Positions 27,922 to 64,000 of a stretch of 64,000 nucleotides of DNA are shown here, one piece after another; position 1 is the stretch's first letter; each line of letters begins with the position of its first letter. The DNA comes from Acidobacteriota bacterium (GTDB lineage Bacteria > Acidobacteriota > Thermoanaerobaculia > Multivoradales > Multivoraceae): assembly GCA_011525365.1 (NCBI GenBank), contig WTGQ01000002.1:2524773-2588772 (forward strand), read 5' to 3'. Made by a program: the position numbers and the translations under genes. Below the pieces are notes generated by a model. The model saw only the letters and a program-made list of their open reading frames with translations. It had not been told where the DNA came from and ran no database searches.

Positions 27922-28647
27922 ATGGCCTTCAAGCTCGAGCGACGCGAGACCACCCGGTCGAAGTTCGCACCCGGTTCCCTCCATCTCGGTGGATCGCCAT
28001 ACGAGTTGGAGCCCGAGAACCGGACCCCACTGCGAATCGCGGTCATCGCGACGATCGCCTTCCACGCGCTGCTGTTCGTCATCAGCTTCCCCAGCATGAG
28101 GCCGCGGGCACTCCAGGCCGCACAGTCACCGAAGGCGTTCGTCGTCCAGGCCGTGCGCTTCAAGCCGCCGCCACCCGCCAAGGCGGAGCCCATTCCCCAG
28201 CGAAAGACGAAGAAGATCCCGATTCCCGACCCGACCCCCGACGAGCCCGAGCCGCTGATCCGGGAAGAGCTCCTCGAAGCGCCGCAACTGGAGATCGATG
28301 GCATCGCCGACGTCCTGTTCGACCTTCCAGAAGCCCCCTCCCCCGCCGGACCGCCCGGCACCATGTGGGTCGAAGGCGATGTCCTGCCCCCCAAGAAGAC
28401 CTACGCTCCGCTGCCCAACTACACCGAGGAGGCGCGTCAGGCGCGCATCCAGGGCGTCGTCATCCTGCAGGCCGTCGTCGATACCCTGGGCCAGGTCGGC
28501 TACGTCAAGGTGCTCAAGGGCCTGCCGGAGGGTCTCACCGAGTCCGCCGTCCAGGTCGTTCAGGAGTGGCGCTACGAACCCGCCACCCTGAACGGCGAAC
28601 CGGTCCCGGTCTACATCAACCTGACCGTCAACTTCTCGCTGCAGTAG
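27922..28647 (+). CDS. TonB family protein (C-terminal TonB domain)
   Basis: Pro-rich spacer KPPPPAKAEP followed by the TonB C-domain NYTEEARQARIQGVVILQAVVDTLGQVGYVKVLKG...ESAVQVVQEWRYEPA. Confidence 0.7.
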   Translation: MAFKLERRETTRSKFAPGSLHLGGSPYELEPENRTPLRIAVIATIAFHALLFVISFPSMRPRALQAAQSPKAFVVQAVRFKPPPPAKAEPIPQRKTKKIPIPDPTPDEPEPLIREELLEAPQLEIDGIADVLFDLPEAPSPAGPPGTMWVEGDVLPPKKTYAPLPNYTEEARQARIQGVVILQAVVDTLGQVGYVKVLKGLPEGLTESAVQVVQEWRYEPATLNGEPVPVYINLTVNFSLQ

Positions 28648-28667
28648 GCGACCCGGCGGATAGCCAC

Positions 28668-28846
28668 GCCTGCGCCGAGGCCGGGAGGGAGGGTCCCAGC
28701 GGACGCTCGCGCCCTCTTGGTGGATGAGGAGACCTGGCGCTCGCTTCGGTCGGCTGCGCTCCGCTACGTGGTTGGTTGATGGACGGACATGGGCAGTCGC
28801 TGGCCTCTAGCCCGCTGGGACCCTCCCTCCCGGCCTCGGCGCAGGC
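28668..28846. repeat. 35-bp perfect inverted repeat pair flanking a 109-bp spacer (MITE-like or large hairpin)
   Basis: 28668-28702 GCCTGCGCCGAGGCCGGGAGGGAGGGTCCCAGCGG is the exact reverse complement of 28812-28846. The repeat itself is certain. Its nature is not. Confidence 0.7.
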
Positions 28847-28860
28847 TGGACGATGTCGGC

Positions 28861-28945
28861 GTTGTGTCACACCTATGCACCTCAACACGGTTTGTGTAAC
28901 ACTTCGAGGCCACAAGTGCGACACAAGCCTGTTTGTCGTACACAG
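28861..28945 (+). promoter_or_regulatory. array of four GTGTnACAC-type near-palindromic motifs upstream of the fic gene (operator-like)
   Basis: GTGTCACAC at 28864, GTGTAACAC at 28894, GTGCGACAC at about 28915 and GTCGTACAC at about 28934. Spacings are 30, 21 and 19 bp. The array ends about 40 bp before the fic ATG. Confidence 0.4.
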
Positions 28946-28986
28946 ACGTTCCACAAAGAGCGCGACGCCAGGAGTCAAGAAGCACG

Positions 28987-30102
28987 ATGTCTCCCGTCCA
29001 CTACCAACCCGGCAGCTTCCCGCCAGACGAGCGCCTCGACTGGGCCGAACTCGTACCGCTGATTGGCCCCACCACGGCTGCAATCGCCCGCTACGACGGC
29101 TTACTCGAAGCCGTGCCCAACCCCGATGTCCTGCTTGCGCCGCTCGGAACCCAGGAAGCCGTGCTCTCGTCCCGGATCGAGGGCACTCAGGCTACCGCCC
29201 GCGAGGTCCTAGAGTACGAGGCTGGACAGGAAGCGCCCTCTTCGGAGCGGAGGAACGACTTCGTCGAGGTCCTGAACTACCGACTCGCGATGCGCGAAGC
29301 AGAGCAGTTGCTGAGGAAGCTACCAATCTGCCTCAAAGTCGTTCGGCAAACGCATCGGGTTCTCCTTCGTGGAGCACGCGGCAAAGGGCGCGACCCAGGC
29401 GAGTTCCGCCGGTTACCGAACTGGATCGGCCCCCCCGACTGCACAGTCGAAGAGGCGCGCTTCGTGCCGATCGAGGCCGACAAGCTCATGGCCGGCCTCG
29501 ATCGATGGGAGAAGTACCTCCACGAGGAGACTCGGGACCAGTTAGTTCAGCTCGCTGTCATACACGCCGAGTTCGAGGCTCTGCACCCGTTCCTCGACGG
29601 TAACGGCCGTCTGGGTCGCATGCTCGTGCCTCTCTACCTCGCCGAGAAGAGCCTGATTCGGCGGCCGATGTTCTACATCAGTGCCTTCCTTGAAGCGAAT
29701 CGCGACGCCTACTACGAAGGACTCCTCGCAGTCTCCCGCGATGACGACTGGACAGGCTGGTGCCGCTTCTTCCTAGAGGCCCTGCGCACGCAAGCGGAGG
29801 ACAACATCGCCAAGGCGAGAAGAATCCTGAGTCTGTACGACCGGATGAAGCACCATGTAACCGACCTCACTCACTCCCAGTACGCCATCAGTTCGCTGGA
29901 CTTCATCTTTGAGTCTCCGGCGTTCAGCAGCACACGTTTCATCGCACACGAGAAGGTGCCCGCTCCCGCCGCTCGCCGCATCCTGAACGCACTCCGCGAT
30001 GACGGCGTGTTGAGAACGGTGCTCCCAGCCAGCGGCCGCCGGCCCGCGATCTTCGTCTTCGACGAACTCCTCGAAGTCGCCGAGGGTCGCGCGACCGAGT
30101 AA
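28987..30102 (+). CDS. Fic family protein (class II Fic with an N-terminal inhibitory helix)
   Basis: Fic motif HPFLDGNGRLGRM. Upstream (S/T)xxxE(G/N) inhibitory motif SSRIEG. ATG at 28987. Confidence 0.85.
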   Translation: MSPVHYQPGSFPPDERLDWAELVPLIGPTTAAIARYDGLLEAVPNPDVLLAPLGTQEAVLSSRIEGTQATAREVLEYEAGQEAPSSERRNDFVEVLNYRLAMREAEQLLRKLPICLKVVRQTHRVLLRGARGKGRDPGEFRRLPNWIGPPDCTVEEARFVPIEADKLMAGLDRWEKYLHEETRDQLVQLAVIHAEFEALHPFLDGNGRLGRMLVPLYLAEKSLIRRPMFYISAFLEANRDAYYEGLLAVSRDDDWTGWCRFFLEALRTQAEDNIAKARRILSLYDRMKHHVTDLTHSQYAISSLDFIFESPAFSSTRFIAHEKVPAPAARRILNALRDDGVLRTVLPASGRRPAIFVFDELLEVAEGRATE

Positions 30103-30125
30103 CCTCGCCGACTCAACAAACGCTG

Positions 30126-32985
30126 ATGAGACTAGCTTGGCAGGAGATCCGCCCACGCGCCGCCGCGTTCGCCCGCGACTGGGCCGACGCCGGCTACGAG
30201 AAGGGCGAGACGCAGAGCTTCTACAACGCCTTCTTCCGCATCTTTGGCGTCGAGCGGCGCAGCGTCGCCCGCTACGAGGAGCAGGTCAAGCGGCTGGACG
30301 ACTCGCAGGGGTTCATCGACTTGTTCTGGCCGGGCGTGCTGCTGGTCGAGCAGAAGAGCGCCGGCCGCGATCTCGTGGCGGCGCGCCGTCAGGCGCTGTC
30401 TTACTTCGACGCCCTCCCGGAGCGCGAGCGGCCTCGCTATCTGCTGTTGTGCGACTTCCAGAACTTCGAACTGCTCGACCTGGACGAAGGCGAGGAAGCG
30501 CGGTTCACGCTGGCCGAGTTGCCCTCCAACGTGGAGAAGTTCGGCTTCATCCTCGGGGTCCAGAAGCGGACCTTCCGCGACGAGGACCCGGTCAACGCGG
30601 AGGCCGCGAAGCTGATGGCGGATCTCCACGACCGGCTGCTCGAGGTCGGCTACGGCGGTCGGGAGCTGGAGTTGTTCCTTGTCCGGATCGTGTTCTGCCT
30701 GTTCGCCGACGACACGGGCATCTTCGAGCGGCGCGACATCCTGCTCGAGCTGCTGGAGCAGCGAACCTCACCGGACGGCAGCGACTTGGGCGGCAGGTTG
30801 GCGCATCTCTTCCAGGTCCTGAACACGCCCGAAGCCAGCCGTCAGGCGACCCTGGACGAGGACCTGGCCCGCTTCCCGTACATCAACGGCGACCTGTTCG
30901 CGGAGACCCTGCCGATCGCCGACTTCGACTCCGCGATGCGCAGAGCGCTGCTCGATGCTTGCCGCTTCGACTGGACCGAGATCTCGCCGGCGATCTTCGG
31001 GACGCTGTTTCAGTCGGTCATGGAACCGGAGGAGCAGCGGATCAAGGGCAGCCACTACACGTCGGAGGCGAACGTCCTGAAGGTCATCGAGCCGCTGTTC
31101 CTGGACGACCTGCGGGCCGAGTTCTTGAGGCTCCGGCGGAGCCGAGGCACGCGGCGCAACGCCGAACTCCATGCCTTCCGGCAGCGACTCGGCCGGATGC
31201 GTTTCCTCGATCCGGCCTGCGGTTGCGGCAACTTCCTGGTCATCGCCTACCGGGAACTGCGCCAGCTCGAGATCGAGGTGCTCCGGGAACTCTTCCCGTC
31301 GCGCCAGCTCGGCCTCCTTGCTGACGCTCTGTCCCTCGTGAACGTGGATCAGTTCCACGGCATCGACCTCGACGAGTTCCCGAAACGGATCACGGAGATC
31401 GCGCTCTGGATGATGGACCACATCATGAACAACAGGCTCAGCCTGGAGTTCGGGGAGGCCTACGCGCGGATCCCGCTGGAGAGCTCACCGCAGATCCCTG
31501 CGCGGTGACGCTCTGGAGGTCGACTGGGACGACGTCCTTCCGCCGGAAGAGTGCTCCTTCGTGCTCGGCAATCCGCCCTTCGGCGGTGCCAAGCACCAGA
31601 CCGAGGAACAGCGGGCGCAGGTGCATCGCATCGCGGATCTCGGCAAGAGCGGCGGCACCTTGGACTACGTCACGGCCTGGTTCCTGAAGGCCGGCGAGTA
31701 CCTGCACCAAGGAATCGAGACCCAGCGCCGGTCCAGGGATCCAGCTGCAGCCGCCAATACGGTCCGGCCGCTCCGGATCGGTTTCGTCGCCACGAACTCG
31801 ATCACTCAGGGCGAGCAGGTCGGCCAATTGTGGCCGTTGATCTTCGACCGTCTGGGACTCGAGATCGCTTTCGGCCACCGGACGTTCGCCTGGAAGTCGG
31901 ACATCAAGAAGAAGGCGAACGTCCATGTCGTGATCGTCGGCCTCACGCTAGCGACCGACACCCCCAAGGATCGTCGGTTGTTCTCTTATCCCGACGTCAA
32001 GGGGAGTGCCGAGGAGAGCCGCCACGCTGCGATCTCGCCGTATCTCGTTGACGCCGGCGGACTCGCCGACCCGCATCTCGTCGTGCGGGAGACGGCAGAG
32101 CCGCTCAACGGCTGGCCGCGTCTCGCTAGCGGCAGCCAGCCCATCGACGACAGGAACTACATCTTCACCGACGACCAGCGGGCTACGTTCCTGGAACAAG
32201 AACCCGGGGCCGCGAAGCACTTGCGCCCCTACGTTGGCGGCGGTGACTACATACAGCGCCACTCCCGTTGGATCCTCGCCCTTCAGGACGCCGAGCCAGA
32301 GGAACTAGCAGCCTTGCCCTTCGTGGTGCAGCGGATCAAGGCTGTCAGGGAGTTCAGGTCAAGGAGCAAGAGGAAGGGCACGCTCGCGATCGCCAACTCT
32401 CCCCGAAGCTACAACGTCGAAGTCCTGCCCACGTCGCCCTTCCTCATCGTCCCCGAGGTCAGCTCCGAGCGCCGCGACTACGTGCCGATCGGCTGGCTTG
32501 AACCCCCGACCATCCCGAGCAACACAGCCCGCATCATCGAGAATGCGACCAAGCCGCTCTTCGCCCTGCTGACCTCCGCCATGCACATGGCCTGGCTGCG
32601 CGTGATCGGCGGCCGCCTGGAGAGCAGGTACCGATACTCGATCGGCTTGGTCTACAACCCCTTCCCGGCGCCGGCGGCGGACGCGGAAGTGCTCAACGAG
32701 AAGCTCGCGCCCTTGGCCAACGCCGTACTCGCAGCCCGCGCAGCGCACCCCGGCGCAACGCTGGCCGAACTCTACGACCCGGACCTCATGCCCGACGACC
32801 TCCGCCGCGCCCACCAGGCCATCGACCGTGCCGTCGACCGCCTCTACCGCCCGCGCCGCTTCTTATCGGAGAACGAGCGGCTGGAGCACCTGCTCTCCCT
32901 CTACGAGAAAACGATCGCCCCCATCTCCGCCGCGGCCCAGCCCAAGCGAAAGCGACGCCGCCGGAGGACGGTCGCGCGCAGATAG
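30126..32985 (+). pseudogene. MmeI-family type IIL restriction-modification enzyme (endonuclease-methyltransferase-TRD fusion), disrupted by a frameshift near 31495-31510
   Basis: N-terminal PD-ExK FIDLFWPGVLLVEQKS. Methyltransferase motif I LDPACGCGNFLV. Motif IV GNPPFGG, with the preceding RGDALEVDWDDVL in the +1 frame. The first frame stops at 31506-31508, and the second frame is open upstream through the junction. Confidence 0.65.
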
Positions 32986-33052
32986 CCGGGGTTGGCGTCC
33001 TGGAGCAGTCGCGTTCAGTCGCCGACGGGAGGCTAGAGCTAGAGTCCGGTTC

Positions 33053-34492
33053 ATGTCCCAGCGGCCCCCTGGCACCGAGCCGATTCTCCTCGAGAATGCA
33101 GTGCGGTTGCGCCCGGCCACGGCGGTCGACAGTGGCACCTGCGAACGTGACGTCATCGCGCGGGCGGAGATTCGGCTCCTGCCGAAGCCGGGCCTCGCAC
33201 TCATCGCGGACGACACTCCTTTCCGCCTCGATTCGGCCAAGGAGCCCTGGACCCTGGTTCAACCCAAGACCTCTGGAGAGCTGTTCGACGTCACGCCGCA
33301 ACCATCTCCTTCATCGCCGCCGGAGGACAAACTCAGGCAGTTCTTTGAGATCTTCGAAGCCACCGGCCACGAAACCGTAAGTCGTCAATCGACAGCCGAC
33401 GCAAGGGAACCGACACGGTGGAACCTAGTGTTTCTACCCCGACGTGCGCCCATCGTCGTTGAAAGGCGTCGAGAAGCTGCCAAGCGACTTGAACTCGAGA
33501 TTCTCAACTTCCCCGTCTTCGGGGGTGACGCGACGAAGGCGGTGCAACTCCCTGGCGGAATCTACCGGATCGGCCATCTGGCGGTCGAAGCGGCACCCTG
33601 GAAGATCGAGTTCACCGAGAGGCCCGGGCTAGGCAGCGTCAGGGCGGAGTTGAATGCAAGCCGCGGGTTCGCAACGACCCACGAGGCAAGAATCGACAGA
33701 GCGGACGGCGGTCCAATCGAGAAAGAGGAAGCTCAGCGTCTCTTGGAAGCGCTCGACCGGTTTCTCTCCTTCACGCGAGGAGTCGGATGCGCCACCGCGG
33801 TTGTAAGGGCGTTCTCGGGTGACGACGCCGTCGTCTGGGAACAGTGGGGCTGTCGGCAGGTGGCGCCTTGGCGCCCTGAACCAGACTCCTGGTTCGACTT
33901 GGAGCATGGGCGAGTCCTTGCCGAGGCCTTCTCCGCCTTCCTTCGTACTTGGGAAACGTGCCACGAGAAGCGGGCCGCCCTTCGCGAGGCGATCTACTGG
34001 TACCTCACAGGACACTGGGAGAACAGTCGAGTGGACGGCGGCCTCATCCTGCTACAGGCGGCGATGGAGCGCCTTGCACATACCTTCTACCGCCCGAAGC
34101 GCTGGAAGGGAAAGGAGAGGGAGACAAGCGGGCAGTGGCTTCGGATGGCCCTTGAGCGAGCTGGAATCCCGGTGGAAGCGCCAGCCAGCTTCAAAGCCCT
34201 CGGCACGTTCGCCGACGGCTTGAGCTGCCCGAAGGGAGAGAAAAGAGACGCCGTGTTTGCGATGACGCAGGCGCGAAACAACGCCGTTCACCCAAGGAAG
34301 GAAACGGAAGTCGCGGGCAGCCTCTACTTCCAAGCCTGGACCCTGGCTCGTTCCTTCGTGGAGCTCATGGTACTAAGTGCCATCGGCTACCAAGGCCCCT
34401 TCGCCAATCGCCTGCGGGAGGGAAGGGTGGAACTCGTGCCCTGGGCGCAGACCAAGAAGCTCCAGTCGGCAATCACACACGGCGCCGAGTAG
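33053..34492 (+). CDS. hypothetical protein, 479 aa, with a C-terminal helical domain carrying a HEPN-like RNxxxH motif
   Basis: ATG at 33053. Lies 67 nt after the MmeI-like gene. The motif is AMTQARNNAVHPRKE inside a predicted all-helical C-terminal 180 aa or so. I recognise no family. Local GC (about 59%) is lower than the flanks. Confidence 0.45.
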   Translation: MSQRPPGTEPILLENAVRLRPATAVDSGTCERDVIARAEIRLLPKPGLALIADDTPFRLDSAKEPWTLVQPKTSGELFDVTPQPSPSSPPEDKLRQFFEIFEATGHETVSRQSTADAREPTRWNLVFLPRRAPIVVERRREAAKRLELEILNFPVFGGDATKAVQLPGGIYRIGHLAVEAAPWKIEFTERPGLGSVRAELNASRGFATTHEARIDRADGGPIEKEEAQRLLEALDRFLSFTRGVGCATAVVRAFSGDDAVVWEQWGCRQVAPWRPEPDSWFDLEHGRVLAEAFSAFLRTWETCHEKRAALREAIYWYLTGHWENSRVDGGLILLQAAMERLAHTFYRPKRWKGKERETSGQWLRMALERAGIPVEAPASFKALGTFADGLSCPKGEKRDAVFAMTQARNNAVHPRKETEVAGSLYFQAWTLARSFVELMVLSAIGYQGPFANRLREGRVELVPWAQTKKLQSAITHGAE

Positions 34493-34518
34493 TGGGTCGG
34501 CGATCCCGAGCAGCGGAG

Positions 34519-35421
34519 ATGGCTCTGTGTGCGGAAGACGCGTTGCTCGCCGCCATCGAGATCTACAACAAGCCTCGAGTCGCCTACCGCGAGCAGACGC
34601 TGGCGCTCCTCCTGGTGAATGCCTGGGAGATCCTCCTGAAGGCGCGTGTCGTTCAGATGCACGGCAACAATCTGGCGGCGATCTACAGGCGGGAGCGAGG
34701 GTCCAAGCGATTCAGAAGAGCCAGATCGGGGAGAATCCTCACGGTCAGCCTTAGAGAGGCCGCCGAGAAGGCTCAGGTGGCCGATCAGGTGCGAAGCAAC
34801 CTGGAGGGACTCTGCGAGATCAGGGACGAGGCGGCGCATCTGGGCAACCTAGGGTCCGAGTTCAGGGAACAGACGCTGAAGCTTGGTTCAGCGGCGGTTC
34901 GGAACTTCGTTGTAGCTGTTGGCCGATGGTTTGGCCGGCAGGTTGAGGCACCTCACTTCCTGCCGCTTGGCTTCCTCAATCAAGCGGATCTGGTAAGGCC
35001 GGCCAACGTGCGGCAGAGAGAACTCCTGGACTATCTGAGGAAGCTGACTTCGGACCAGACACCATCGGACTCCGGGTTCACCGTGAGCTTGCGTGTCGAC
35101 GTTCTGCTGAACCCGGAGTTCTCCGGCGGTGGCACGATCGGTGTCACGAACAACCCAGCCGCGCCGAAGGTGCACCTGACGGACACGCAAGCTCTCGAGC
35201 GGTATCCGCTGACGTACGAGGATCTCGTAGAGGAGTGCCGCGCCCTGATTCCGAACCTCAAGCAGAACCAGTCGTTTCACGAGGCGATGAAGACAGTGAA
35301 GAGTGACGCTAACCAAGCGCTCGAGAGGCGGCTGAATCCGCAGAAGCCCGGAGGTACGAGGAAGTTCTTCTACGCCAGGACGGCGCCGGGCCGTCTCCGG
35401 CACCTCCTGCGAGGTGACTGA
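34519..35421 (+). CDS. hypothetical protein, about 300 aa, with an N-terminal four-helix HEPN-like domain (Rx4H: EIRDEAAHLGN)
   Basis: The ORF 34492..35421 overlaps the stop of the upstream gene. The probable start is the ATG at 34519. It has a conserved-looking helix AIEIYNKP...LALLLVNAWEILLKA and an Rx4H motif. I can place it in no named family. Confidence 0.45.
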   Translation: MALCAEDALLAAIEIYNKPRVAYREQTLALLLVNAWEILLKARVVQMHGNNLAAIYRRERGSKRFRRARSGRILTVSLREAAEKAQVADQVRSNLEGLCEIRDEAAHLGNLGSEFREQTLKLGSAAVRNFVVAVGRWFGRQVEAPHFLPLGFLNQADLVRPANVRQRELLDYLRKLTSDQTPSDSGFTVSLRVDVLLNPEFSGGGTIGVTNNPAAPKVHLTDTQALERYPLTYEDLVEECRALIPNLKQNQSFHEAMKTVKSDANQALERRLNPQKPGGTRKFFYARTAPGRLRHLLRGD

Positions 35422-35494
35422 AGTGGCTGGCGCAGCGTTCGGCGTGGTCCGTTGGTCCGCGTAGGGGAGCCAGCCGACGCCGATGCCCGCCGGC

Positions 35495-36577
35495 CTAATC
35501 TCCGCCCGAACCCGTGCTCGCGCCCTGCCCCTTCTTCTCGTAGTACTCCTTCTCCAGCAGCCGGGCGCCGCGGAGGATGTTGCCCATCGCGTAGTTGCCT
35601 TCGTGGCAGGCGTACTCGTAGAGAAGGCCGTCGGTTCCCGGCCAGATGAGTTCGCCGCTATAGGGGGCAGCGTAGTCCGTGTCATGGACGGTGAACCCGT
35701 AGAGCAGGTCCCTCTCGCCGTGGCGGCTGAAGCGCTCGATGACCTTCAGGCCGTCGCGCGGGTCGCTCTGGCTGTCGAGGAAGTTGGTCGTCTCCACGAC
35801 CAGCGTGTCGCCTTCCCACCAGCCGATCGAGTCGCCGCCCATCGAACGGTACTCGGCTGGCGCGTGCTCGGCGTTCAGGCGGACCACCTTCGCCCAATGC
35901 ATCCACTCGACCAGGATCACGACGTGGTCCTCGGTCTGCGTGATCGTCTTCAGGTTGTTGTAGGGCAGTGAACGGACCGGCGTCGTGGCGACGCCGGTGT
36001 AGATGCAGCGGTCTCCGGGAGTCAACGTCTCGGGGCCATCGTAGGGATCGTCCCCGGCCTCGATCCACCAGGCGTCCCCGGTGTTCTTGTAGAGGTACGG
36101 GTTCACCCTGGCCCGCCGCGCCTTGCCGGCCTCGGTCAGTTCCGGCATACGGCCGTTCGGCGGGTCGATGAGGACCGATGTACGGTACTGGCCATCGATC
36201 GGATACGCCTGGTTGCCAAAGTCCAGCCAGAAGAAGTTGTAGCCGCCGACCGCGCCGGACGCGCCCGCGGAACCGTCGCCGCCAGCCGGGGGCGCCTCAC
36301 GGTCCGGGTCGCTGACCGCGTCCGCGCCCGCGCTGGCCGCCGCCATCCCGGCAGCGATCCGCTCCGCTTCCTCCGCGGTCATGAACTGTTTGTCGCCGAA
36401 GCGGGGATCCCGTTCGAACGGTGTCAGGTTGGCGACGTCGTAGTTGCCGGACAGGTCCGGCCGGCCGCTCGCCGTGCGCCGGATGTCGTCATCGCTGGCC
36501 GCCACGGCGGGCGTGGCGAGAAGCGACAGAAAGACGAGAACAACGAACAGGGTGGAGACGTTGCGACGAATCGGCAT
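35495..36577 (-). CDS. secreted hypothetical protein
   Basis: Signal peptide MPIRRNVSTLFVVLVFLSLLATPAVAAS. About 335-aa mature region with no recognisable family. Confidence 0.5.
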   Translation of the reverse strand: MPIRRNVSTLFVVLVFLSLLATPAVAASDDDIRRTASGRPDLSGNYDVANLTPFERDPRFGDKQFMTAEEAERIAAGMAAASAGADAVSDPDREAPPAGGDGSAGASGAVGGYNFFWLDFGNQAYPIDGQYRTSVLIDPPNGRMPELTEAGKARRARVNPYLYKNTGDAWWIEAGDDPYDGPETLTPGDRCIYTGVATTPVRSLPYNNLKTITQTEDHVVILVEWMHWAKVVRLNAEHAPAEYRSMGGDSIGWWEGDTLVVETTNFLDSQSDPRDGLKVIERFSRHGERDLLYGFTVHDTDYAAPYSGELIWPGTDGLLYEYACHEGNYAMGNILRGARLLEKEYYEKKGQGASTGSGGD

Positions 36578-42042: not shown

Positions 42043-44049
42043 TCAGGGGGAGCCGGTAGCCGCTGCGCCGGATGCCGCCGTCAGCGGGAACTCCTCCACG
42101 CCGTACTCGGCCAGGATCGAGGCCGCCAGATCGGTAATGGCGGGGGCCGGCCTGGCAAGGGGCCGGCTGGTGAACAGCACCCCCGGCACGACCCGGTGAT
42201 CCATCATGTGATCGCCGCTCCAGGCGCCGTCGTTGTCCGAGAACACCTCGCCGACGACCTTCCCCGTCGCTGATTCGGTCGATCCCCGGTAGCCTTTGGC
42301 ATAGCCGATGATCAGGTCGGGGCCGACGGCCGCCGGCTCCTGGAAGGCATAGTCGGCGCGACGCTTGACCTCCGTGATCGCGCGTTCGCCCGTCGCGGGA
42401 TCGACCACGGCCAGCAGTTCCGTTCTCAGTTCCTCGATCAGCTCGAGCCTCTCCGCCGCGGTCACGACGCCCTCCCGCTCGCGGCCGCGCAGATTGACAT
42501 AAAGACCCGTGAAGCCGATGCCGTAGGCCCGGGTTCCCTCCCAGTCGACGTTGAGCAGGAAGTCCGGGTCGTTGTAGGCATCCGGGTCCTTCGCCCGCAG
42601 GTAGCCCTTCTCGAGCAGCCAGGCGTTCAGGTGGAAGGTACGCCGCCAGGAGGCGAAGCCATGGTCCGACATGGCGACGACAAGCGGCTCGTCCTCACCA
42701 CCGTCGCCCAGTCCCGCCGCCGCTTCGAGACGGTCGAGCGTCTGCCCGACGATCGCGTCGAGGCCTTCGTAAAGGGTCGGGATCAGGTCGGCATGGGCCG
42801 CGTCGGTTTCGGGATCGTAGGCCGGATGCTCCGGATCGCGCGAGCGCCAGCGCACATGGCCGATCAGGTCCACGTTGCCGAAGTAGTAGAAGAGGAAACC
42901 GCCGGGCTCCTCCAGGAATCGATCCAGCACGTAGCCGTACTGCTCCACCACTTCGTCGCCGGCGATCTTCGCCTGGGCCAGGAACTCCTCCGGAGTGAAC
43001 ACGCCTTCGGTCAGGGTCTTCGTGTCCTCGGGCATCCCTTCGGTGTAGAACCGGTCCACCTCCTGGGCGAGTTCGGCCGCGAAGTCGGGCGGCGTCGAGA
43101 TCGGGGCCGATGGGGCCATCGGATCGTGGTCGATGGGGCTCACGTAGAGCTCGAACTCCGGCTCCAGCGCCCGTAGGTACATACGGCAGATTCCCCGCAG
43201 GTGCTGGGTCGGCATCATCTCGAAGTCGACCTCGAGCCAGTCGCTCCACTCCCCGACCTGGAGCACGATCTGCTGATCGCCGAGTTCGATCTTGGCGCTC
43301 GCGGCCTCCGGATCGATGTAGACGGTGAAGGGCGCGGTCAACTGCTCCGGTTCCTGCAGCAGCGGATTCTCGGGGCCGAGCAGCTCCGCCTCGACGACGT
43401 TGTCGTAGATGTCCAGCTCGACGATGTCGCCGCCGCTGACCTCGCGGTCGGCGAAGAGTTCCGAGGTGTAGAACGAGAACGTGCCGTCCGTGCCGAGGAT
43501 GTCGCTCGTCCCCATCCCCGAAAGCTCGCGACTGGCCGTGCCCGAAACCGGGAAGTTCGCCGGCATGCGGATCACCTGCGTCCGCACACCGTGCTCCTCC
43601 AGCACCTCCCAGAACGGCGTGCCGTGCCGAAAGTGCGTGTACTCGCCGCTGGTGAGCGGGAACTGCCAGCGTCCCACCTTCAGGAACCGGCCTCCCGCGG
43701 ACGAACCGGCGGTAGAGGAGTACGGAATCAGCGTCTCCGGATCGGAGTGGAGGAAGTCGAAGATGCCGTGGCCGCCCGGGTCCATTCCGGTGATGAAGCT
43801 CGACCAGGCGACCGGGCTCTGCGGCGGGACCGTCGTCCGGAGTTGGGCGAAGGTGCCCATCGCCTCCAGCCGGGCGAAGTTCGGCAACCGACCCTCGTCG
43901 ATCAACTGGCGCGTCAGCGCGTGGTCCAGGCCGTCGAAGCCGAGAACGACGACCTTCGGCCCCCTGGAAGGGCCGACGCCTCCACCGCCGCAAGCGAGGA
44001 GCAGGGCGGCCGAGAGAACCGCCGCCGTCGCCAGACGTGAACGCTTCAC
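42043..44049 (-). CDS. type I phosphodiesterase / nucleotide pyrophosphatase family lipoprotein (alkaline-phosphatase superfamily)
   Basis: Lipobox LLLACGGG. AlkP-core motifs VVLGFDGLD, SPVAWSSFITG and AMSDHGF. Confidence 0.8.
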   Translation of the reverse strand: MKRSRLATAAVLSAALLLACGGGGVGPSRGPKVVVLGFDGLDHALTRQLIDEGRLPNFARLEAMGTFAQLRTTVPPQSPVAWSSFITGMDPGGHGIFDFLHSDPETLIPYSSTAGSSAGGRFLKVGRWQFPLTSGEYTHFRHGTPFWEVLEEHGVRTQVIRMPANFPVSGTASRELSGMGTSDILGTDGTFSFYTSELFADREVSGGDIVELDIYDNVVEAELLGPENPLLQEPEQLTAPFTVYIDPEAASAKIELGDQQIVLQVGEWSDWLEVDFEMMPTQHLRGICRMYLRALEPEFELYVSPIDHDPMAPSAPISTPPDFAAELAQEVDRFYTEGMPEDTKTLTEGVFTPEEFLAQAKIAGDEVVEQYGYVLDRFLEEPGGFLFYYFGNVDLIGHVRWRSRDPEHPAYDPETDAAHADLIPTLYEGLDAIVGQTLDRLEAAAGLGDGGEDEPLVVAMSDHGFASWRRTFHLNAWLLEKGYLRAKDPDAYNDPDFLLNVDWEGTRAYGIGFTGLYVNLRGREREGVVTAAERLELIEELRTELLAVVDPATGERAITEVKRRADYAFQEPAAVGPDLIIGYAKGYRGSTESATGKVVGEVFSDNDGAWSGDHMMDHRVVPGVLFTSRPLARPAPAITDLAASILAEYGVEEFPLTAASGAAATGSP

Positions 44050-56140: not shown

Positions 56141-57193
56141 ATGGCGCTCCTACCCTTGCCAGCCGGCGCCGGTCCGAAAAGCGATCCGTACCGGAGCGGC
56201 GAGTGGTCGTACAACCCCGACCTGAACCGGGTCGCGGCCGCGGCCGCCGACTGGCGAAGCCGCCACCAGCTCACCCCCGCCGCAGCGGACGAGACGAGCC
56301 GCGTTCTCCTGCTGGTCGACGAGCAGCGGGACTTCTGCCTGCCCGAGGGCGCCCTCTACGTCGGCGGCCGTTCGGGCCGCGGTGCGGTCGAAGACACGGG
56401 CCGCGTGGTCCGCTTCATCTACCGCAACCTCGGCAACCTGACCGAGATCGCATCCAGCCTCGACAGCCACACGCCGCAGCAGATCTTCTTCTCGTCCTTC
56501 TGGGTCGACGGCTCGGGCAGGCAGCTCGACGGCTACCGCGAAGTGCTCGCATCCGAGGTCGAAGCCGGCAAGGCGGTCCCCAACCCGGCTCTCGCCGGCT
56601 GGTTCGGCGACGGCACCGCGGAATGGCTCAGGCGCCAGGCCCTGGACTACTGCCAAAGACTCGAGGCGACCGGGAAGTACCGCCTCTACCTGTGGCCGCC
56701 GCACTGCTTCCTCGGCAGCGAGGGTCACGGCCTGGTCGGCGCGGTCCAGGAAGCCCGGTTGTTCTTCAGCTACGCCCGCGGCGCCGAGACGCCGATCCTG
56801 ATCAAGGGCACAAACCCCCTGACCGAGTACTACTCCGTCCTCGCGCCTGAGGTGCTGATCCGCCACGACGGCGAGGAACTCGATCGGCGCAACCAGGCGT
56901 TGATCGACCGGCTGCTTGGCGCCGACGCCGTGATCGTCGCCGGTCAGGCCGCGAGCCACTGCGTCCGCTACACCGTCGACGACCTGCTGGCCGAGATGCA
57001 GTCCCGCGGCGTCCCGGCAAGCCGGCTGCACGTGCTGGCCGACTGCATGTCGGCGGTCGCCGTGCCCGACCCCGCGACGCCCGGCGAGTTCCTCGCCGAC
57101 TTCACACCCGAGGTCGAAGCCTCAATGAAGCGCTGGCGGGAGGCCGGAGTCCACGTCGCGAGTTCGGAGGACGACGCCTCGGACTGGAGCTGA
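56141..57193 (+). CDS. isochorismatase-family cysteine hydrolase, nicotinamidase (PncA)-like, with a C-terminal extension
   Basis: LLLVDEQRDFC (Asp) and the catalytic Cys in AGQAASHCV. 350 aa. Lies next to nadE and pncB. Confidence 0.6.
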   Translation: MALLPLPAGAGPKSDPYRSGEWSYNPDLNRVAAAAADWRSRHQLTPAAADETSRVLLLVDEQRDFCLPEGALYVGGRSGRGAVEDTGRVVRFIYRNLGNLTEIASSLDSHTPQQIFFSSFWVDGSGRQLDGYREVLASEVEAGKAVPNPALAGWFGDGTAEWLRRQALDYCQRLEATGKYRLYLWPPHCFLGSEGHGLVGAVQEARLFFSYARGAETPILIKGTNPLTEYYSVLAPEVLIRHDGEELDRRNQALIDRLLGADAVIVAGQAASHCVRYTVDDLLAEMQSRGVPASRLHVLADCMSAVAVPDPATPGEFLADFTPEVEASMKRWREAGVHVASSEDDASDWS

Positions 57194-57197
57194 CCGC

Positions 57198-59291
<2,094 letters not shown>

Positions 59292-59337
59292 GCGGGATTA
59301 TGAACGACCGGCCGCCGAAGCGCCGTTCCCCGGCGGT

Positions 59338-60753
59338 TCAGGCCGAGCGGGCGGGCGGCGCGTGCGAGGCCGCCAGCCGGTCGCACTGCTCCATCAGGCT
59401 CGCCGTGACCTCGACCGGCGCCGGCCCGTGTGCCTCGAGGTCCTGCAACGCCGGCGGCAGTGAGGCCACCTCGCGCCCCGCCGTCTCACGAGCGGCGTCG
59501 AGCGCCGGCAGCGGCTCGATCAGCAGGCCGTCCTCCAGCACCGGCACGAGCAGATCGCGGCCCCCTGGATCGTCCAGGCCCGAGGCCTCCCCGCCCTCGT
59601 CGAGCGCGTGGATCACGTCCCGCTCCAAAGCCCCGGCCGCATCTCGGTAGCGCCGCACCTGCAGGCGTCCCGGCAGGGAGGCCTTGCCGACCCCGGCCCC
59701 GAACTTGAACACCGGCCGCCACGCTTCCTCGCCGCTCCGCCGGATCGCCGACAGCTTGTAGACGCCCCCCAGCGCACCCGCGCCCGCCGCCGTGACCAGT
59801 GCGGTGCCGACGCCCCAGATGTCGATTGCCGCGCCCGCCCGCCGCAACGCCAGAATCTTCTTTTCGTCGAGGTTGTCGCTGACGACGATGGCGACGTCCT
59901 CGAGCCCGGCCTCGTTGAGCCGCCGCCGCGCCGCGCGGCTCTGCAGCAGCAGGTCGCCCGAGTCGAGGCGGATGCCGAGCAGCCGCTGGCCGCGCCGCTC
60001 GAGCGCGCGCGCGGTGGCGATCGCGTGCTCGATCCCTCGCTCCACGTCGTAGGTATCGACCAGGAGAACGCAGTTGTTCGGCATCGTTTCGGCGAACGCG
60101 TCGAACGCCTCGGGTTCCGAGTCGAAGGCCTGGACCCAACTGTGGGCGTGGGTGCCCCGCACCGGAATGCCGAAGCGCTGTCCCGCCTCGACGTTCGACG
60201 TCGCGAAGCAGCCGCCGACGTAGGCCGCGCGGCTGGCGCTCAAACCGCCGTCGAAGCCCTGCGCCCGTCGCAAACCGAACTCCAGCACCGGCTGACCCGG
60301 CGCGGCGATGTGACAAAGCCGGGCTGCCTTCGTCGCCACCAGCGTCTGAAAGTTGAAGATGTTGAGCACGGGCGTCTCGATCAACTGGCCGACCAGCAGC
60401 GGCGCCTCGATTCGGAGCAGCGGTTCCCTCGCGAAGACGGCCGTGCCTTCCGGCACGGCCGCCAGCGAGACGGAGAGGTCGAGTGTCGGCAGCACCTCCA
60501 GGAAGTCCCGGCCGAACAGGGCTCGGCCGTCGCTTCCGGCAAGGCTTCGCAGATACTCCACGTCCTCGGCCTCGAAGCGAAGATCGAGGAGAAACTCCAC
60601 GACCTGCTCAAGTCCGGCCGCGACGGCGAAGCCGCCGTCGAACGGGGTATGGCGAATCGACAGGTAGAAGCTGGCCCGGTCCAGATGGCGACCGTGCCGC
60701 CAGTACCCCTGGGCCATCGTCAACTGGTAGAGGTCGGTCGTCAGAGCGCTCAC
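59338..60753 (-). CDS. pncB: nicotinate phosphoribosyltransferase
   Basis: N-terminus LTTDLYQLTMAQGYW and the NAPRTase fold motifs GTHAHSW and FGIRLDSGD. The GTG at 60753 has a GGAGG Shine-Dalgarno sequence. The upstream part of ORF 59338..61449 is rejected. Confidence 0.85.
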   Translation of the reverse strand: MSALTTDLYQLTMAQGYWRHGRHLDRASFYLSIRHTPFDGGFAVAAGLEQVVEFLLDLRFEAEDVEYLRSLAGSDGRALFGRDFLEVLPTLDLSVSLAAVPEGTAVFAREPLLRIEAPLLVGQLIETPVLNIFNFQTLVATKAARLCHIAAPGQPVLEFGLRRAQGFDGGLSASRAAYVGGCFATSNVEAGQRFGIPVRGTHAHSWVQAFDSEPEAFDAFAETMPNNCVLLVDTYDVERGIEHAIATARALERRGQRLLGIRLDSGDLLLQSRAARRRLNEAGLEDVAIVVSDNLDEKKILALRRAGAAIDIWGVGTALVTAAGAGALGGVYKLSAIRRSGEEAWRPVFKFGAGVGKASLPGRLQVRRYRDAAGALERDVIHALDEGGEASGLDDPGGRDLLVPVLEDGLLIEPLPALDAARETAGREVASLPPALQDLEAHGPAPVEVTASLMEQCDRLAASHAPPARSA

Positions 60754-62585
60754 GTCGGCGCCTCCAGCGGCTCGCGCGACGACCGGTGCTGGTACAGCTC
60801 GCCGTCCTCGAAGCCGAGCCGGCGGTAGTACTCGCGGGTGCCGACCGAGGAGATGACGGCGACCTGACCAAACCCGGCGCCGGCCGCGATGTCCAGCGCC
60901 TCGGCGATCAGGCGCCGGCCGAGGCCGACGTGCTGCGACCGTCCCTCGTCCCGCGCGCCCAGGCCGACGACCGCTCCGTAGACGTGAACCTCGCGGATGA
61001 TCGCCCTGTCCGCCAGCTCCGGGATGGAGACTCCGTCCATGCCGGCCGGCCCGGGTAGGCGAAGCCGCAGGAACCCCGCGATCCGGTCCTCCGCGGTCAC
61101 GAACTCGAGGAACGTCTCCCGGCCGCCTGACGCTTCGTAGTCCGTGCGCCGCAGGCGAAGCCGGCGAGGATCGACCTGCCGGCCGCCGACCTCGCGGGCG
61201 CGGATGTCCCGGCAGCGGACGCCGCGCGCCGACGCTTCGGCCTCGGCCACCTGACGCAGGTTCGTCGTGCGGTTGCCGGTCACGATGTCGGTGCCGGGAA
61301 TGTCGCGAATCACCCTGCTGAGGCGGCAGTAGCGCGGCGCTCCGCCCAGACCGTGGACGAGCACGTCGAGCAACTCGTCCGCCTCGTACGGACGCCACTC
61401 GCCGCGTCGGTGGTACGCCATCAGTTCCGCGCTCTCGATCAGGGAGCACGGATAGACCTTGAGTTCGTCCGGCCGCACGTCGGGATCCGCGAACAGCCGG
61501 TCGAAGTCCTCCCGGTCCCTGGCCGGCGTCGATCCGTGGAGATTCGGCATCCAGTGCGCCTGGATCTTGAAGCCGGCCTGGCGCAGGAGGCGCACGGCGC
61601 GCTGGGACCGGGCCGTGTCGTGGCCTCGGCCGTTCAGCGCCAGAACGTCGTCGTCCATGCTCTGGATGCCGATCTGGACCTTCGTCGCCCCGAGCCGCCG
61701 CATGCGCAGCGCCTCCGCCGCGTCGAGCCGGTCGGGCCGGGTTTCGAGCGACAACCCGACGCAGCGGACCGGCGAGGTCTCGTTCTCCCGCTGCGCCGCC
61801 AGCAGGTCGGCCCAGTCCGCGTTCTGCTCGCGCGCCTCCGCCGCCGCCCGCGGATGGACGGCGGTCCAGTCGGAAACGACCTGGTTGTAGCTGCGGCCGG
61901 CTGCCGCGTCCGACGAGTCGACCTCAGCGCCCCGCACCGTCTCCTCGAGCTGCCGGTAGTCCACCGCGGGATCGAAGGTCAGCAACGGATCCGCCCCCGG
62001 CCCGGACGACAGGTCGAAGAACTCATTCATCGCCTCCAGACAGCGCAGGATGAACCAGACCTGGTAGCCCTCCGGGTAGCTCGACCAGGTGCCGCCGAGG
62101 ACGATCAACTCCACCTTGTCGACCGGATGCCCGGTGTGGCGATAGGAGCGGAGGCGGGAGAAGGTCTGCCGGTAGGGATCGAACTGGTGTTCGGCGGCCC
62201 GCTGGGCGCCGGGCTCGGACGACAGGTAGCTCTTCGGCATCCGCACGTCGCTGGGGCAGAAGATGCACCGGCCCGGGCAGGGGTAGGGCTTGGTCAGCAC
62301 GGTCACCGGCGCCACGCCGCTCCTGGTGCGAACCGGCTTCATCCGCACCCGCTCGACGAACGCCTGCTCGCCCGCCGAACCGGGCCGGAGCGCGCGGTAG
62401 CCGCGGATCAACTCGCTCTTCGAGAAGAAACCCCTGCCGTTCTTCGGGTGGCGACGCAGCAGTTCCTCGAGATCACGCTCCCCGAAGCGTGACGCACTCT
62501 CGATGGCGCCGATGATCGCGTCGAGCTCCGCCGCGTGCTCTTCGGGCTCGAACGAGAAACGCTTCGGGGCTATTGTCGCCGCCAT
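60750..62585 (-). CDS. Elp3-like protein (radical SAM domain plus C-terminal GNAT acetyltransferase). Putative tRNA wobble-uridine modifying enzyme.
   Basis: Radical-SAM cluster motif YPCPGRCIFCP, TIM-barrel core, and a C-terminal GNAT with acetyl-CoA motif (RSQHVGLGRRLI). 611 aa. Its stop overlaps the pncB start. Confidence 0.75.
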   Translation of the reverse strand: MAATIAPKRFSFEPEEHAAELDAIIGAIESASRFGERDLEELLRRHPKNGRGFFSKSELIRGYRALRPGSAGEQAFVERVRMKPVRTRSGVAPVTVLTKPYPCPGRCIFCPSDVRMPKSYLSSEPGAQRAAEHQFDPYRQTFSRLRSYRHTGHPVDKVELIVLGGTWSSYPEGYQVWFILRCLEAMNEFFDLSSGPGADPLLTFDPAVDYRQLEETVRGAEVDSSDAAAGRSYNQVVSDWTAVHPRAAAEAREQNADWADLLAAQRENETSPVRCVGLSLETRPDRLDAAEALRMRRLGATKVQIGIQSMDDDVLALNGRGHDTARSQRAVRLLRQAGFKIQAHWMPNLHGSTPARDREDFDRLFADPDVRPDELKVYPCSLIESAELMAYHRRGEWRPYEADELLDVLVHGLGGAPRYCRLSRVIRDIPGTDIVTGNRTTNLRQVAEAEASARGVRCRDIRAREVGGRQVDPRRLRLRRTDYEASGGRETFLEFVTAEDRIAGFLRLRLPGPAGMDGVSIPELADRAIIREVHVYGAVVGLGARDEGRSQHVGLGRRLIAEALDIAAGAGFGQVAVISSVGTREYYRRLGFEDGELYQHRSSREPLEAPT

Positions 62586-62633
62586 GACGGGAACCTACTA
62601 CGGCGGCACCGGGCACTTGCGGGCAACGAGGCG

Positions 62634-63446
62634 ATGACGACCACGGCCGGCGAGACGGCCACCGGGACACCGTTCGAGGGGCGGGCTGCCCTGGTCACGG
62701 GCGGCGGCAGCGGCATCGGACTGGCAATCACCCGCGCCCTCGGCCGGGGCGGATGCGGCATCGCCCTCGGCGGCCGCCGCCGGGAGGTCGTGGAAGCCGC
62801 CGCCGCCGACCTGCGCGCGCTCGGCCTTCGCGCCGTCGCCGTCGCCGGCGACGTCTCGAGTGCGGACGGCGCGCGGCAGATGGTGGAAGAAGCGGCACGC
62901 GAACTCGACGGGCTGGACATCCTGGTCAACTGCGCAGGCGTCTACCGCGCCGGTCCGCTCGCCGACGAGGGCGACGAAGCCGAACCCGACCCGGTCGACC
63001 TCGTCGTCGACGTCGACCTGAAGGGCGTGCTGTTCGCGACCCGGGCCGCGATCCCCCATCTCCGCGCGGGTCGCGGCGGGGCCTCGATCGTCAACATCTC
63101 GTCGTCGCTCACCCAATCGCCGCTCGCCAACTGCTCCGTCTACACGGCCGCGAAGGCCGGCGTCGACGCGCTGACCCGCGGCCTCGCGGCCGAGCTTGCC
63201 GGCGACCGGATTCGCGTCAACGCGGTGCTTCCCGGGGTCGTGCGCACCCCGATCTTCGAGACGATCATGCCGCCGGACGAGGCCGCCGCCTTTCTCGACG
63301 GCTTCGGCGGCCAGGTGCCGCTGGGCCGCGTCGGCGAGCCGGACGACGTTGCCCGCGCCGTCGTCTTCCTGTGCGACCCGGCGAACGACTGGATCACCGG
63401 AGCCCTGCTCGCAGTCGACGGCGGGCTCAGCCTGGGCACACCGTAG
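62634..63446 (+). CDS. SDR family oxidoreductase
   Basis: TGGGSGIGLA, NCAG, YTAAKAG and PG motifs. ATG at 62634. Confidence 0.85.
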   Translation: MTTTAGETATGTPFEGRAALVTGGGSGIGLAITRALGRGGCGIALGGRRREVVEAAAADLRALGLRAVAVAGDVSSADGARQMVEEAARELDGLDILVNCAGVYRAGPLADEGDEAEPDPVDLVVDVDLKGVLFATRAAIPHLRAGRGGASIVNISSSLTQSPLANCSVYTAAKAGVDALTRGLAAELAGDRIRVNAVLPGVVRTPIFETIMPPDEAAAFLDGFGGQVPLGRVGEPDDVARAVVFLCDPANDWITGALLAVDGGLSLGTP

Positions 63447-63540: not shown

Positions 63541-64000
63541 ATGGGCCCGTCGACCCAAGCCGCCCTTCGCCGAATCAACAGCGACTTCTACAGCCGCCAC
63601 GCGGCCGAGTTCGACCGCACCCGCCACCCGGGCGGCTGGCCGGGCTGGCAGCGGGTTGTCGAGACGGCAGTGTCCCCCACTGGCCGCCCGCTACGTGTCC
63701 TCGACCTCGGCTGCGGCAACGGTCGCTTCGCCCTGTTTCTAACGCGGAAGCCCGAACTCCTTGGGCACACTCCGTTCACCTATCAAGGCATCGACCTCAG
63801 CAGCGAGCTGGTCGACCACGCCCGAGCGGCCACCGCCGACCTCGACCGCATCCGGTTCGAGGTCGACGACATCGAGAACTGCGCCCTCGACGAAGCGACG
63901 GTTGACCTCGTCACCCTCTTCGGCGTTCTCCACCACCTCCCGGGGTTCGACACGCGCCGCCGCACCCTCGAACGCGCCGCATCGGCCGTGGCGCCCGGCG
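63541..64000 (+). CDS. class I SAM-dependent methyltransferase (5' partial; continues past the window end)
   Basis: Motif I VLDLGCGNGRF and post-I acidic residue. The reading frame stays open to the end of the window. Confidence 0.55.
   Translation, partial: MGPSTQAALRRINSDFYSRHAAEFDRTRHPGGWPGWQRVVETAVSPTGRPLRVLDLGCGNGRFALFLTRKPELLGHTPFTYQGIDLSSELVDHARAATADLDRIRFEVDDIENCALDEATVDLVTLFGVLHHLPGFDTRRRTLERAASAVAPG

Follow-up and report, generated by a model that had tools for sequence, protein, structure and literature searches.

The window analysed here is a stretch of 64,000 nucleotides (nt) from an Acidobacteriota bacterium of the family Multivoraceae (contig WTGQ01000002.1), and the subject of this report is a gene near its end, elp3, together with the genes that adjoin it. 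As judged from sequence and a structural model, the gene product is a genuine bacterial Elp3, a member of a known enzyme family, and it is predicted from sequence and gene context to represent a large, uncharacterised long-form bacterial subfamily. The locus as a whole is probably explained by a catalytically intact Elp3, a Trm9-like methyltransferase partner, and an elp3-pncB-nadE unit that is specific to one lineage. The phylum-spanning conserved partner of long-form Elp3 is the Trm9-like methyltransferase, which an earlier note on this DNA had missed.

Briefly, the radical S-adenosylmethionine (rSAM) and lysine acetyltransferase (KAT) domains of Elp3 would equip the wobble uridine of some tRNAs with a carboxymethyl group at C5 (5-carboxymethyluridine, cm5U34). 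Following the published mechanism (PMC13315578, PMC6367351), the KAT domain would hydrolyse acetyl-CoA once tRNA is bound, the acetate would move via an internal interdomain tunnel to the rSAM site, and a 5'-deoxyadenosyl radical would abstract hydrogen, so that the acetate radical could add to C5 of U34 to yield cm5U. The divergently transcribed Trm9-like methyltransferase would probably turn cm5U into 5-methoxycarbonylmethyluridine (mcm5U). In the Candidatus (Ca.) Multivorans lineage (Acidobacteriota, Thermoanaerobaculia), elp3 would head a transcription unit that continues into pncB and nadE; ribosomes ending elp3 could reinitiate at the overlapping pncB GTG, which would tie PncB synthesis to Elp3 translation, and nadE is probably co-transcribed and would initiate independently.

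Tentatively, and at slightly less than even odds, several bacterial phyla that are largely uncultured (Acidobacteriota, Myxococcota, Chloroflexota, Patescibacteria, and Spirochaetes) may have a wobble pathway of the eukaryotic/archaeal type, in which a stand-alone long-form Elp3 would make cm5U34 and a divergently encoded Trm9-like enzyme mcm5U34, apparently without Trm112, and PncB translation would be hard-wired to Elp3 in the Ca. Multivorans family. In the literature searched, mcm5U-type modification and the Elp3-Trm9 gene pair were described in eukaryotes and archaea, not in bacteria. The pairing predicts cm5U/mcm5U at the wobble position in these bacteria, as in archaea and eukaryotes, which is relevant to how the Elongator pathway evolved and to decoding in little-known phyla.

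Elp3 of the window and its long-form subfamily

The gene and the parts of its product are as follows:

60750..62585, minus strand: elp3, long-form bacterial Elp3 with radical-SAM and KAT domains, ATG start, 611 aa (basis: open reading frame, TIGR01211, PDB, and fold)
62322..62585, minus strand: N-terminal extension, residues 1-88 (AlphaFold2 model; TIGR01211 aligns only from residue 74 on, model position 49)
62256..62279, minus strand: radical-SAM [4Fe-4S] motif C103-x3-C107-x2-C110 (PCPGRCIFCP; from sequence, the triad being present in 81/81 relatives)
61806..62021, minus strand: insertion specific to the subfamily, within the rSAM domain at residues 189-260 (split of PDB alignments at 188/261)
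60786..61178, minus strand: KAT/GNAT domain, approximately residues 470-600 (aligned to the KAT domains of MinElp3 and DmcElp3)

The open reading frame (ORF) described in the earlier note, with an ATG start and 611 aa, lies exactly at 60750..62585 on the minus strand; it carries KPYPCPGRCIFCPSD, and its 3' end reads, on the coding strand, ...GGAGGCGCCGACGTGA. The same note had called the protein an Elp3 homologue, subject to comparison with other radical-SAM/GNAT fusions, and that comparison puts Elp3 far ahead. The TIGR01211 (ELP3) profile scores 470.9 bits on the 611-aa protein against a cutoff of 350 (E=4.6e-141, so that chance is not an issue), and the next-best NCBIfam radical-SAM family, MnmL/YtqA (TIGR01212), scores 39.9 bits. 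MnmL/YtqA, a bacterial tRNA-modification radical-SAM protein, resembles the window Elp3 in its radical-SAM core and C-terminal Radical_SAM_C region, but its score lies below a cutoff of 180, its match is confined to residues 274-439, and it has no KAT domain.

Searches of PDB sequences point the same way, with the archaeal MinElp3 (Methanocaldococcus infernus) as the best match (E=5.1e-103), followed by the bacterial DmcElp3 (Dehalococcoides mccartyi; E=2.3e-99) and by eukaryotic Elp3s from human, mouse, and yeast (E about 1e-84), the Elp3 matches ranging from 5e-103 to 4.5e-82. An AlphaFold2 (AF2) model built on 74 homologues has a predicted template-modelling score (pTM) of 0.87, and when it was compared with the PDB by Foldseek the top 11 matches were all Elp3 (TM-score TMt 0.85-0.91), the first match outside Elp3 being lipoyl synthase (E=4e-6). 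The Radical_SAM and Radical_SAM_C models of Pfam match the protein, and none of the Pfam GNAT models does so at E<=1e-3. The C-terminal GNAT domain that had been recognised from the letters alone aligns over its whole length, through residue ~595, to the KAT/GNAT domains of solved Elp3s and contains the QHxGxG motif.

Residue conservation was scored over 81 aligned relatives drawn from several phyla. The cluster motif YPCPGRCIFCP, also noticed earlier, is present and supplies C103, C107, and C110. It has been reported that E207, K302, and Y304 of MinElp3 are needed for cm5U formation (PMC13315578); they align to E281, K376, and Y378 of the window protein, each of which occurs in 81/81 relatives. 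In the KAT domain, the acetyl-CoA motif Q551-H-V-G-L-G556 (60918-60935, minus strand) is accompanied by H534-V-Y536-G, and Q551, H552, G554, G556, H534, Y536, and G537 are likewise each found in all 81. From its family and these residues, we infer that the window Elp3 is catalytically intact.

DmcElp3 (5L7J, 5L7L, 6IA6) is also bacterial and stand-alone, without other Elongator subunits; it shares the Cx3Cx2C spacing (PCPGKCIYCP in DmcElp3), the rSAM+KAT architecture, the QHxGxG motif, and the fold (TMt 0.89-0.91 with the window model). However, it has 459 aa, neither an N-terminal extension nor an insertion, and it retains a CRCIRC Zn-Cys3 motif (PMC6367351), whereas the window protein has 611 aa, an extension of ~80 residues, a 72-aa insertion, and CRDIRA. 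MinElp3 (6IA8, 6IAD, 6IAZ), a biochemically reconstituted cm5U synthase and the closest PDB sequence, likewise has an N-terminal extension before the rSAM core, and its E207/K302/Y304 correspond to E281/K376/Y378 of the window protein; it differs in its Cx4Cx2C spacing, in its Zn/disulfide cysteines C384 and C389, and in lacking the insertion (PMC6367351), and its flexible N-terminus is unalignable to the window extension (the TIGR01211 match begins at model position 49). Eukaryotic Elp3 within Elongator (8PTX, 8ASW, 6QK7, 8AVG) has the catalytic core in common with the window protein, and both are without Zn-Cys3; the N-termini of tRNA-bound human and yeast Elp3 are ordered, and these structures have the highest query-normalised TM-scores (TMq) to the window model. 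Eukaryotic Elp3 is without the insertion, and its partners Elp1, Elp2, and Elp4-6 are not expected in bacteria.

With regard to the extension, helices are predicted in the AF2 model at residues 14-30, 36-45, 56-66, and 73-81, and the predicted local distance difference test (pLDDT) averages 83-93 over blocks of 10 between residues 11 and 80. Across phyla, its strongly basic second half is conserved (R64 in 79/81 and R86 in 81/81 relatives), and the TMq values of the model peak against tRNA-bound human (0.76) and yeast (0.73) Elp3. The MinElp3 N-terminus was reported to bind tRNA (PMC6367351), and by likeness to it the extension probably does so as well. In comparison with CHARACTERISED Elp3s, the PDB alignments of the window protein all split in two, at 74-188 and 261-595, and because they break there, residues 189-260 represent an insertion that no solved Elp3 has, whether archaeal, bacterial, or eukaryotic. 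In the relatives this insertion measures 67 aa at the median, with the Y233-N234 pair kept in all but one (80/81); in the AF2 model it forms a poorly ordered loop of low to moderate confidence, followed by short helices at 233-243 and 247-253. At the Zn-Cys3 site, where CRDIRA replaces the CRCIRC of DmcElp3, the second and third positions (460 and 463) are never Cys among the 81 relatives. Since eukaryotic Elp3 is also without this motif (PMC6367351), it is not a defining feature of the whole Elp3 family.

These departures from the characterised Elp3s, namely the ~70-aa insertion, the unmatched N-terminus, and the lost Zn site, together with the failure of the Pfam GNAT models to match, might be taken to mean that the protein is a different radical-SAM/GNAT fusion acting on another substrate. 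We regard this as scarcely credible: the match to Elp3 extends over the full length in both sequence and fold, the gap to other families is very large, and every residue known to be essential is kept. Its naming as Elp3 adds little novelty, as the NCBI pipeline already names near-identical proteins (92-94% identity) 'tRNA uridine(34) ... radical SAM/GNAT enzyme Elp3'.

As to the distribution of the subfamily, species-representative genomes were scanned with two peptide patterns specific for the long form (CIFCPSDV and DELK[IV]YPC), which gave at least 592 confirmed loci; the best 80 of these include Acidobacteriota, Myxococcota, Chloroflexota, Patescibacteria, and Spirochaetes (Spirochaetaceae). 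A protein database search returned at least 7999 clusters at E<1e-10, archaeal and eukaryotic Elp3 included. The closest relatives among the matches listed are from metagenome-assembled genomes of Candidatus Multivorans, Holophagales, and Thermoanaerobaculia (phylum Acidobacteriota), and a protein identical to the window Elp3 was found on metagenome scaffolds of 2.2-3.9 Mb. DmcElp3 has been called 'a rare example of bacterial Elp3s' (PMC6367351), and the earlier note followed the literature in holding that few bacteria have Elp3; with at least 592 species genomes carrying the long form, that view is overstated. Bacterial Elp3 is far commoner than the structural literature implies, and most of it appears to be of the uncharacterised long form.

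A conserved methyltransferase beside elp3

Two genes lie upstream of elp3 in the window, both on the opposite strand:

62634..63446, plus strand: divergent short-chain dehydrogenase/reductase (SDR) oxidoreductase, separated from the elp3 ATG (62585) by 48 nt
63541..64000, plus strand: class-I S-adenosylmethionine (SAM) methyltransferase, putatively Trm9-like, first 153 of 254 codons (from translation; the gene runs past the window end)

The window methyltransferase is identical to L001 8281-9045 and to P0149. Neighbourhood comparisons rest on 81 fetched loci, in which ORFs within 4.5 kb of elp3 were clustered. The top recurrent neighbour is a class-I SAM methyltransferase of ~255 aa, on the opposite strand and a median of 54 nt upstream. 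By tblastn it lies upstream and divergent in 65/81 loci, or in 65 of the 74 with enough upstream flank, 7 of the 16 negative loci having less than 1.2 kb of upstream sequence. The positive loci cover the same phyla as the best long-form loci (Acidobacteriota, Myxococcota, Chloroflexota, Patescibacteria, and Spirochaetes), and the other recurrent neighbours (ClpB-like and others) reach at most 6 loci each. In the Multivorans lineage, the SDR gene is inserted between elp3 and the methyltransferase. The association also holds in reverse, for among four methyltransferase homologues chosen independently of Elp3, three have a divergent adjacent Elp3-type gene (Radical_SAM plus Radical_SAM_C, 549-606 aa).

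The neighbouring gene product has the class-I SAM methyltransferase fold, and its relation to Trm9 is suggested by profile searches. For METHYLTRANSFERASE, single-sequence searches of Pfam, NCBIfam, and the PDB gave generic class-I families only (CmoM at 25.6 bits against a cutoff of 366). When a 28-sequence profile of the family was compared with the PDB, Trm9 of Yarrowia (5cm2_Z) ranked first of 167 (E=2.7e-13, 52.8 bits; next match 45.8), and with a 57-sequence profile Trm9 was again first (50.5 vs 46.6 bits). The best PDB match thus belongs to Trm9-Trm112 (5CM2), the methyltransferase that converts cm5U to mcm5U, and the bacterial family resembles it in that a TRxxPWP N-terminal motif, the SAM-binding Asp, an HH pair, and a W align to essential Trm9 residues. 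In Saccharomyces Trm9 (ScTrm9), R29, D72, H116, W145, W168, R241, Y243, and N271 were reported to be essential and H115 to be non-essential (PMC4678810). R29 and D72 align to R28 and D85, both invariant in the bacterial family, H116 to the nearly invariant H132, H115 to the invariant H131, and W145 to W161, which is invariant in alignment A3 and nearly so in A4. Three members of the family are named TRM9 by the Joint Genome Institute (JGI) pipeline. The second Tyr of the RYYH motif of Trm9 may correspond to an invariant Cys here (RYCH), a tentative placement that no tool aligned.

In archaea, a precedent for such clustering is found in Sulfolobus solfataricus, in which the Elp3 and Trm9 genes cluster, and the archaeal (Haloferax) Trm9-Trm112 complex makes mcm5U (PMC6144793, PMC2584109).

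The support for a Trm9-like partner is nevertheless modest. The fold search does not discriminate among methyltransferases, and the lead of Trm9 over the next PDB match is small. The alignment does not reach W168, R241, Y243, and N271 of ScTrm9, and when the C-terminal half of the family was used as a profile, the PDB gave 0 matches at E<=10. The NCBI name for the family is the generic 'class I SAM-dependent methyltransferase'. In addition, no conserved small ORF resembling Trm112 was found within 3.5 kb of the gene pair in 80 loci, where only shadow-frame artefacts appeared. Set against the profile matches, the aligned residues, and the gene clustering, these points leave the most likely role, for an unproven family member, as that of a Trm9-like enzyme acting on the product of Elp3, which we favour by a rather narrow majority of the probability.

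In two Anaerolineae loci of the Chloroflexota (L085 and L086, 4315-5121), the Trm9-like gene is followed at once by the gene of a second, different class-I methyltransferase, with a DUF3566 gene between it and elp3.

In the window, elp3 and the SDR gene diverge from start codons only 48 nt apart; the gap (62586-62633) contains no detectable sigma-70-like promoter, and a promoter scan of 56-64 kb found no promoter-like site. The two promoters must either overlap the adjoining coding regions or give transcripts with very short leaders.

The elp3-pncB junction and the NAD-salvage genes

Downstream of elp3 are genes for the salvage of nicotinamide adenine dinucleotide (NAD):

60761..60765, minus strand: Shine-Dalgarno GGAGG for pncB, within the coding end of elp3 (sequence; 7 nt upstream)
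60750..60753, minus strand: GTGA overlap of the elp3 stop (TGA 60752-60750) and the pncB start (GTG 60753-60751)
59338..60753, minus strand: pncB, nicotinate phosphoribosyltransferase, 471 aa (TIGR01513; Pfam NAPRTase_N and NAPRTase)
59292..59337, minus strand: pncB-nadE spacer, 46 nt, with a CCGCCG...CGGCGG inverted repeat and no T-run (sequence)
57198..59291, minus strand: nadE, glutamine-dependent NAD+ synthetase, 697 aa, CN_hydrolase and NAD_synthase domains (NF002730)
56141..57193, plus strand: isochorismatase-like gene convergent on nadE, 350 aa in the public gene call (mechanical ORF from 56069)

Both enzymes of the unit are firmly assigned to their families, PncB by TIGR01513 (493.5 bits against a cutoff of 297.4) and NadE by NF002730 (1016.7 bits against 473). 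Since model position 1 of TIGR01513 falls on residue 3 of PncB, the GTG start is well placed. The overlap of the elp3 stop with this GTG, reported in the earlier note, is accurate: it comprises the 4 nt GTGA, with a perfect GGAGG 7 nt upstream. The further claim that elp3 is translationally coupled to both pncB and nadE stands for pncB, which overlaps, but not for nadE, which is on the same strand and has its ATG 46 nt beyond the pncB stop. From the geometry of the junction, PncB synthesis probably depends on elp3 translation through termination-reinitiation. No terminator-like site was predicted in the 46-nt spacer, and a terminator scan of 56-64 kb returned one such site, inside pncB, a count below chance expectation.

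The isochorismatase-like gene has faint matches only (NF008623 at 29.4 bits, Pfam Isochorismatase at 21.6 bits, and Mycobacterium tuberculosis PncA 3pl1 at E=1.2e-3) and is syntenic with nadE in 16 Multivoraceae loci. It may encode a divergent nicotinamidase (PncA), which would complete the salvage route.

The extent of the linkage was surveyed by tblastn of the PncB, NadE, PncA-like, and SDR proteins of the window against all fetched loci. The close loci (L004-L022) represent 19 Multivoraceae species with Elp3 of 67-92% identity. A block of co-oriented elp3-pncB-nadE with the convergent PncA-like gene occurs in every locus that has an Elp3 of at least 67% identity and enough contig, and in 17 Multivoraceae loci nadE runs in the same direction as elp3. 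All 19 close loci keep a 4-nt NTGA overlap of elp3 and pncB, in which the start codon is GTG, ATG, or TTG, and in most Multivoraceae loci the junction is preceded, at a distance of 6-9 nt, by a GGAGG/GGAG-like element. The spacer between pncB and nadE in relatives varies from ~6 to 193 nt and is never replaced by an overlap. Among the 61 loci with an Elp3 below 62% identity, a same-strand pncB lies directly 3' of elp3 in four, all from Acidobacteriota (L003, L036, L038, and L047), one further locus (L043) has a distant pncB-like gene on the opposite strand, and nadE is found beside elp3 in none by tblastn. No pncB linkage occurs in any non-acidobacterial phylum among the fetched loci.

In a neighbour-joining tree of Elp3, L047 and L036 are placed just outside the Multivoraceae clade, and L003 and L038 pair elsewhere, yet have the upstream SDR synteny in common. 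On the simplest reading, the elp3-pncB adjacency had one origin, or two at most, within Thermoanaerobaculia and was then passed on by vertical descent, and nadE and the PncA-like gene were recruited after elp3 and pncB had been paired.

The gene call L003/P0076 (8001-10635, 827 aa) joins Elp3 in frame to the N-terminus of PncB with no stop between them. It was considered as a natural Elp3-PncB fusion and set aside as unusable, its coverage being 4x and the pncB frame being shifted ~350 nt later; it is indistinguishable from an assembly error.

The earlier note had also suggested that the operon might hint at a regulatory or metabolic link between tRNA modification and NAD salvage. The linkage itself is real and stably inherited, but a general link is unsupported, as the linkage is confined to one acidobacterial lineage. 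A true functional or regulatory coupling could consist in matching the supply of reducing power from NAD(P)H to the radical-SAM cluster, or in a joint tuning of translation and NAD pools to growth or acetyl-CoA status. It would account for the retention of the overlap, with its Shine-Dalgarno element, in 19/19 species loci although the start codon changes, for the reach of the pncB adjacency into some deeper Thermoanaerobaculia branches (L036, L038, L047, and L003), and for the apparently later joining of nadE and the pncA-like gene, which suggests a growing operon. On the other hand, the linkage is absent from the remaining loci, all non-acidobacterial phyla included, and the tree is consistent with one or two events and vertical descent thereafter. 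In established enzymology, the Elp3 reaction shares no substrate or cofactor with those of PncB and NadE. NAD+ riboswitches occur in Acidobacteria; an Rfam scan at the operon found no riboswitch or other regulatory RNA, its sole match being che1 at a chance-level E=0.81. The literature searched contained no link between Elp3 and nicotinate phosphoribosyltransferase (NAPRTase) in bacteria and lends the coupling no support. We therefore consider such a coupling improbable, at well under one chance in five.

Two more specific connections are far less probable still. If Elp3 were mainly a protein lysine acetyltransferase, NAD salvage could recycle, via PncA and PncB, the nicotinamide freed by NAD-dependent sirtuins; the KAT/GNAT domain is present, a complete-looking Preiss-Handler set (PncA-like, PncB, and NadE) adjoins, and Elp3 has historically been proposed to acetylate proteins (PMC9433433). 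However, the rSAM active-site residues that are needed only for tRNA chemistry are kept in 81/81 sequences, the conserved partner is Trm9-like and not a sirtuin, and no sirtuin gene occurs in the 20 kb around elp3, so that this reading is very unlikely. An even slighter chance is given to the idea that the NadE-type amidotransferase also amidates cm5U to 5-carbamoylmethyluridine (ncm5U), which would make the operon partly tRNA-directed. The chemistry is analogous, being a glutamine-dependent amidation of an adenylated carboxylate, and the carboxylate-to-carboxamide step from cm5U to ncm5U is described as unknown (PMC6367351), and no eukaryotic enzyme for it is known; the co-orientation of nadE in the 17 loci is also compatible with it. 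Nevertheless, NadE attains an NAD+ synthase equivalog score and forms a coherent NAD pathway with pncB and the PncA-like gene, nadE is never linked to Elp3 outside one family, and the pncB-nadE spacer is variable and without overlap. The best reading of the elp3-pncB-nadE unit is that of a housekeeping operon, inherited and specific to its lineage, and not of a connection between pathways. The elp3-pncB junction, conserved and translationally coupled, is a clean case of its kind and currently gives no pointer to new biology.

Other features in and near the window

The GC content of the window is uniformly high (0.63-0.72). A stretch at ~28000-36000 is lower (0.63-0.65, compared with ~0.68-0.70 elsewhere) and carries, on the plus strand, genes at 28987-30102, 30126-31508, 31561-32985, and ~33053-34492, among which are a Fic-domain gene, a YopA-like gene, and an MmeI-family restriction-modification enzyme. 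The latter is split over two adjacent ORFs, the first with MmeI_N/hel/Mtase and the second with Mtase/TRD/C domains, and the stretch resembles a defence island that was acquired, or else a gene that was disrupted.

An 87-nt tRNA-Trp(CCA) was called by ARAGORN at 43919-44005 on the minus strand. A false positive or an atypical gene is the probable explanation, because an Rfam scan of the whole window at gathering thresholds reported no tRNA and no other family.

Beyond the window end, ~6-9 kb from elp3 (~68450-71300 in window numbering; L001 1284-4135), are the genes for topoisomerase VI subunits B and A. Topoisomerase VI is mainly an archaeal and eukaryotic enzyme. The same neighbourhood also occurs in L003 (602-3641), a relative with an Elp3 at 61% identity.

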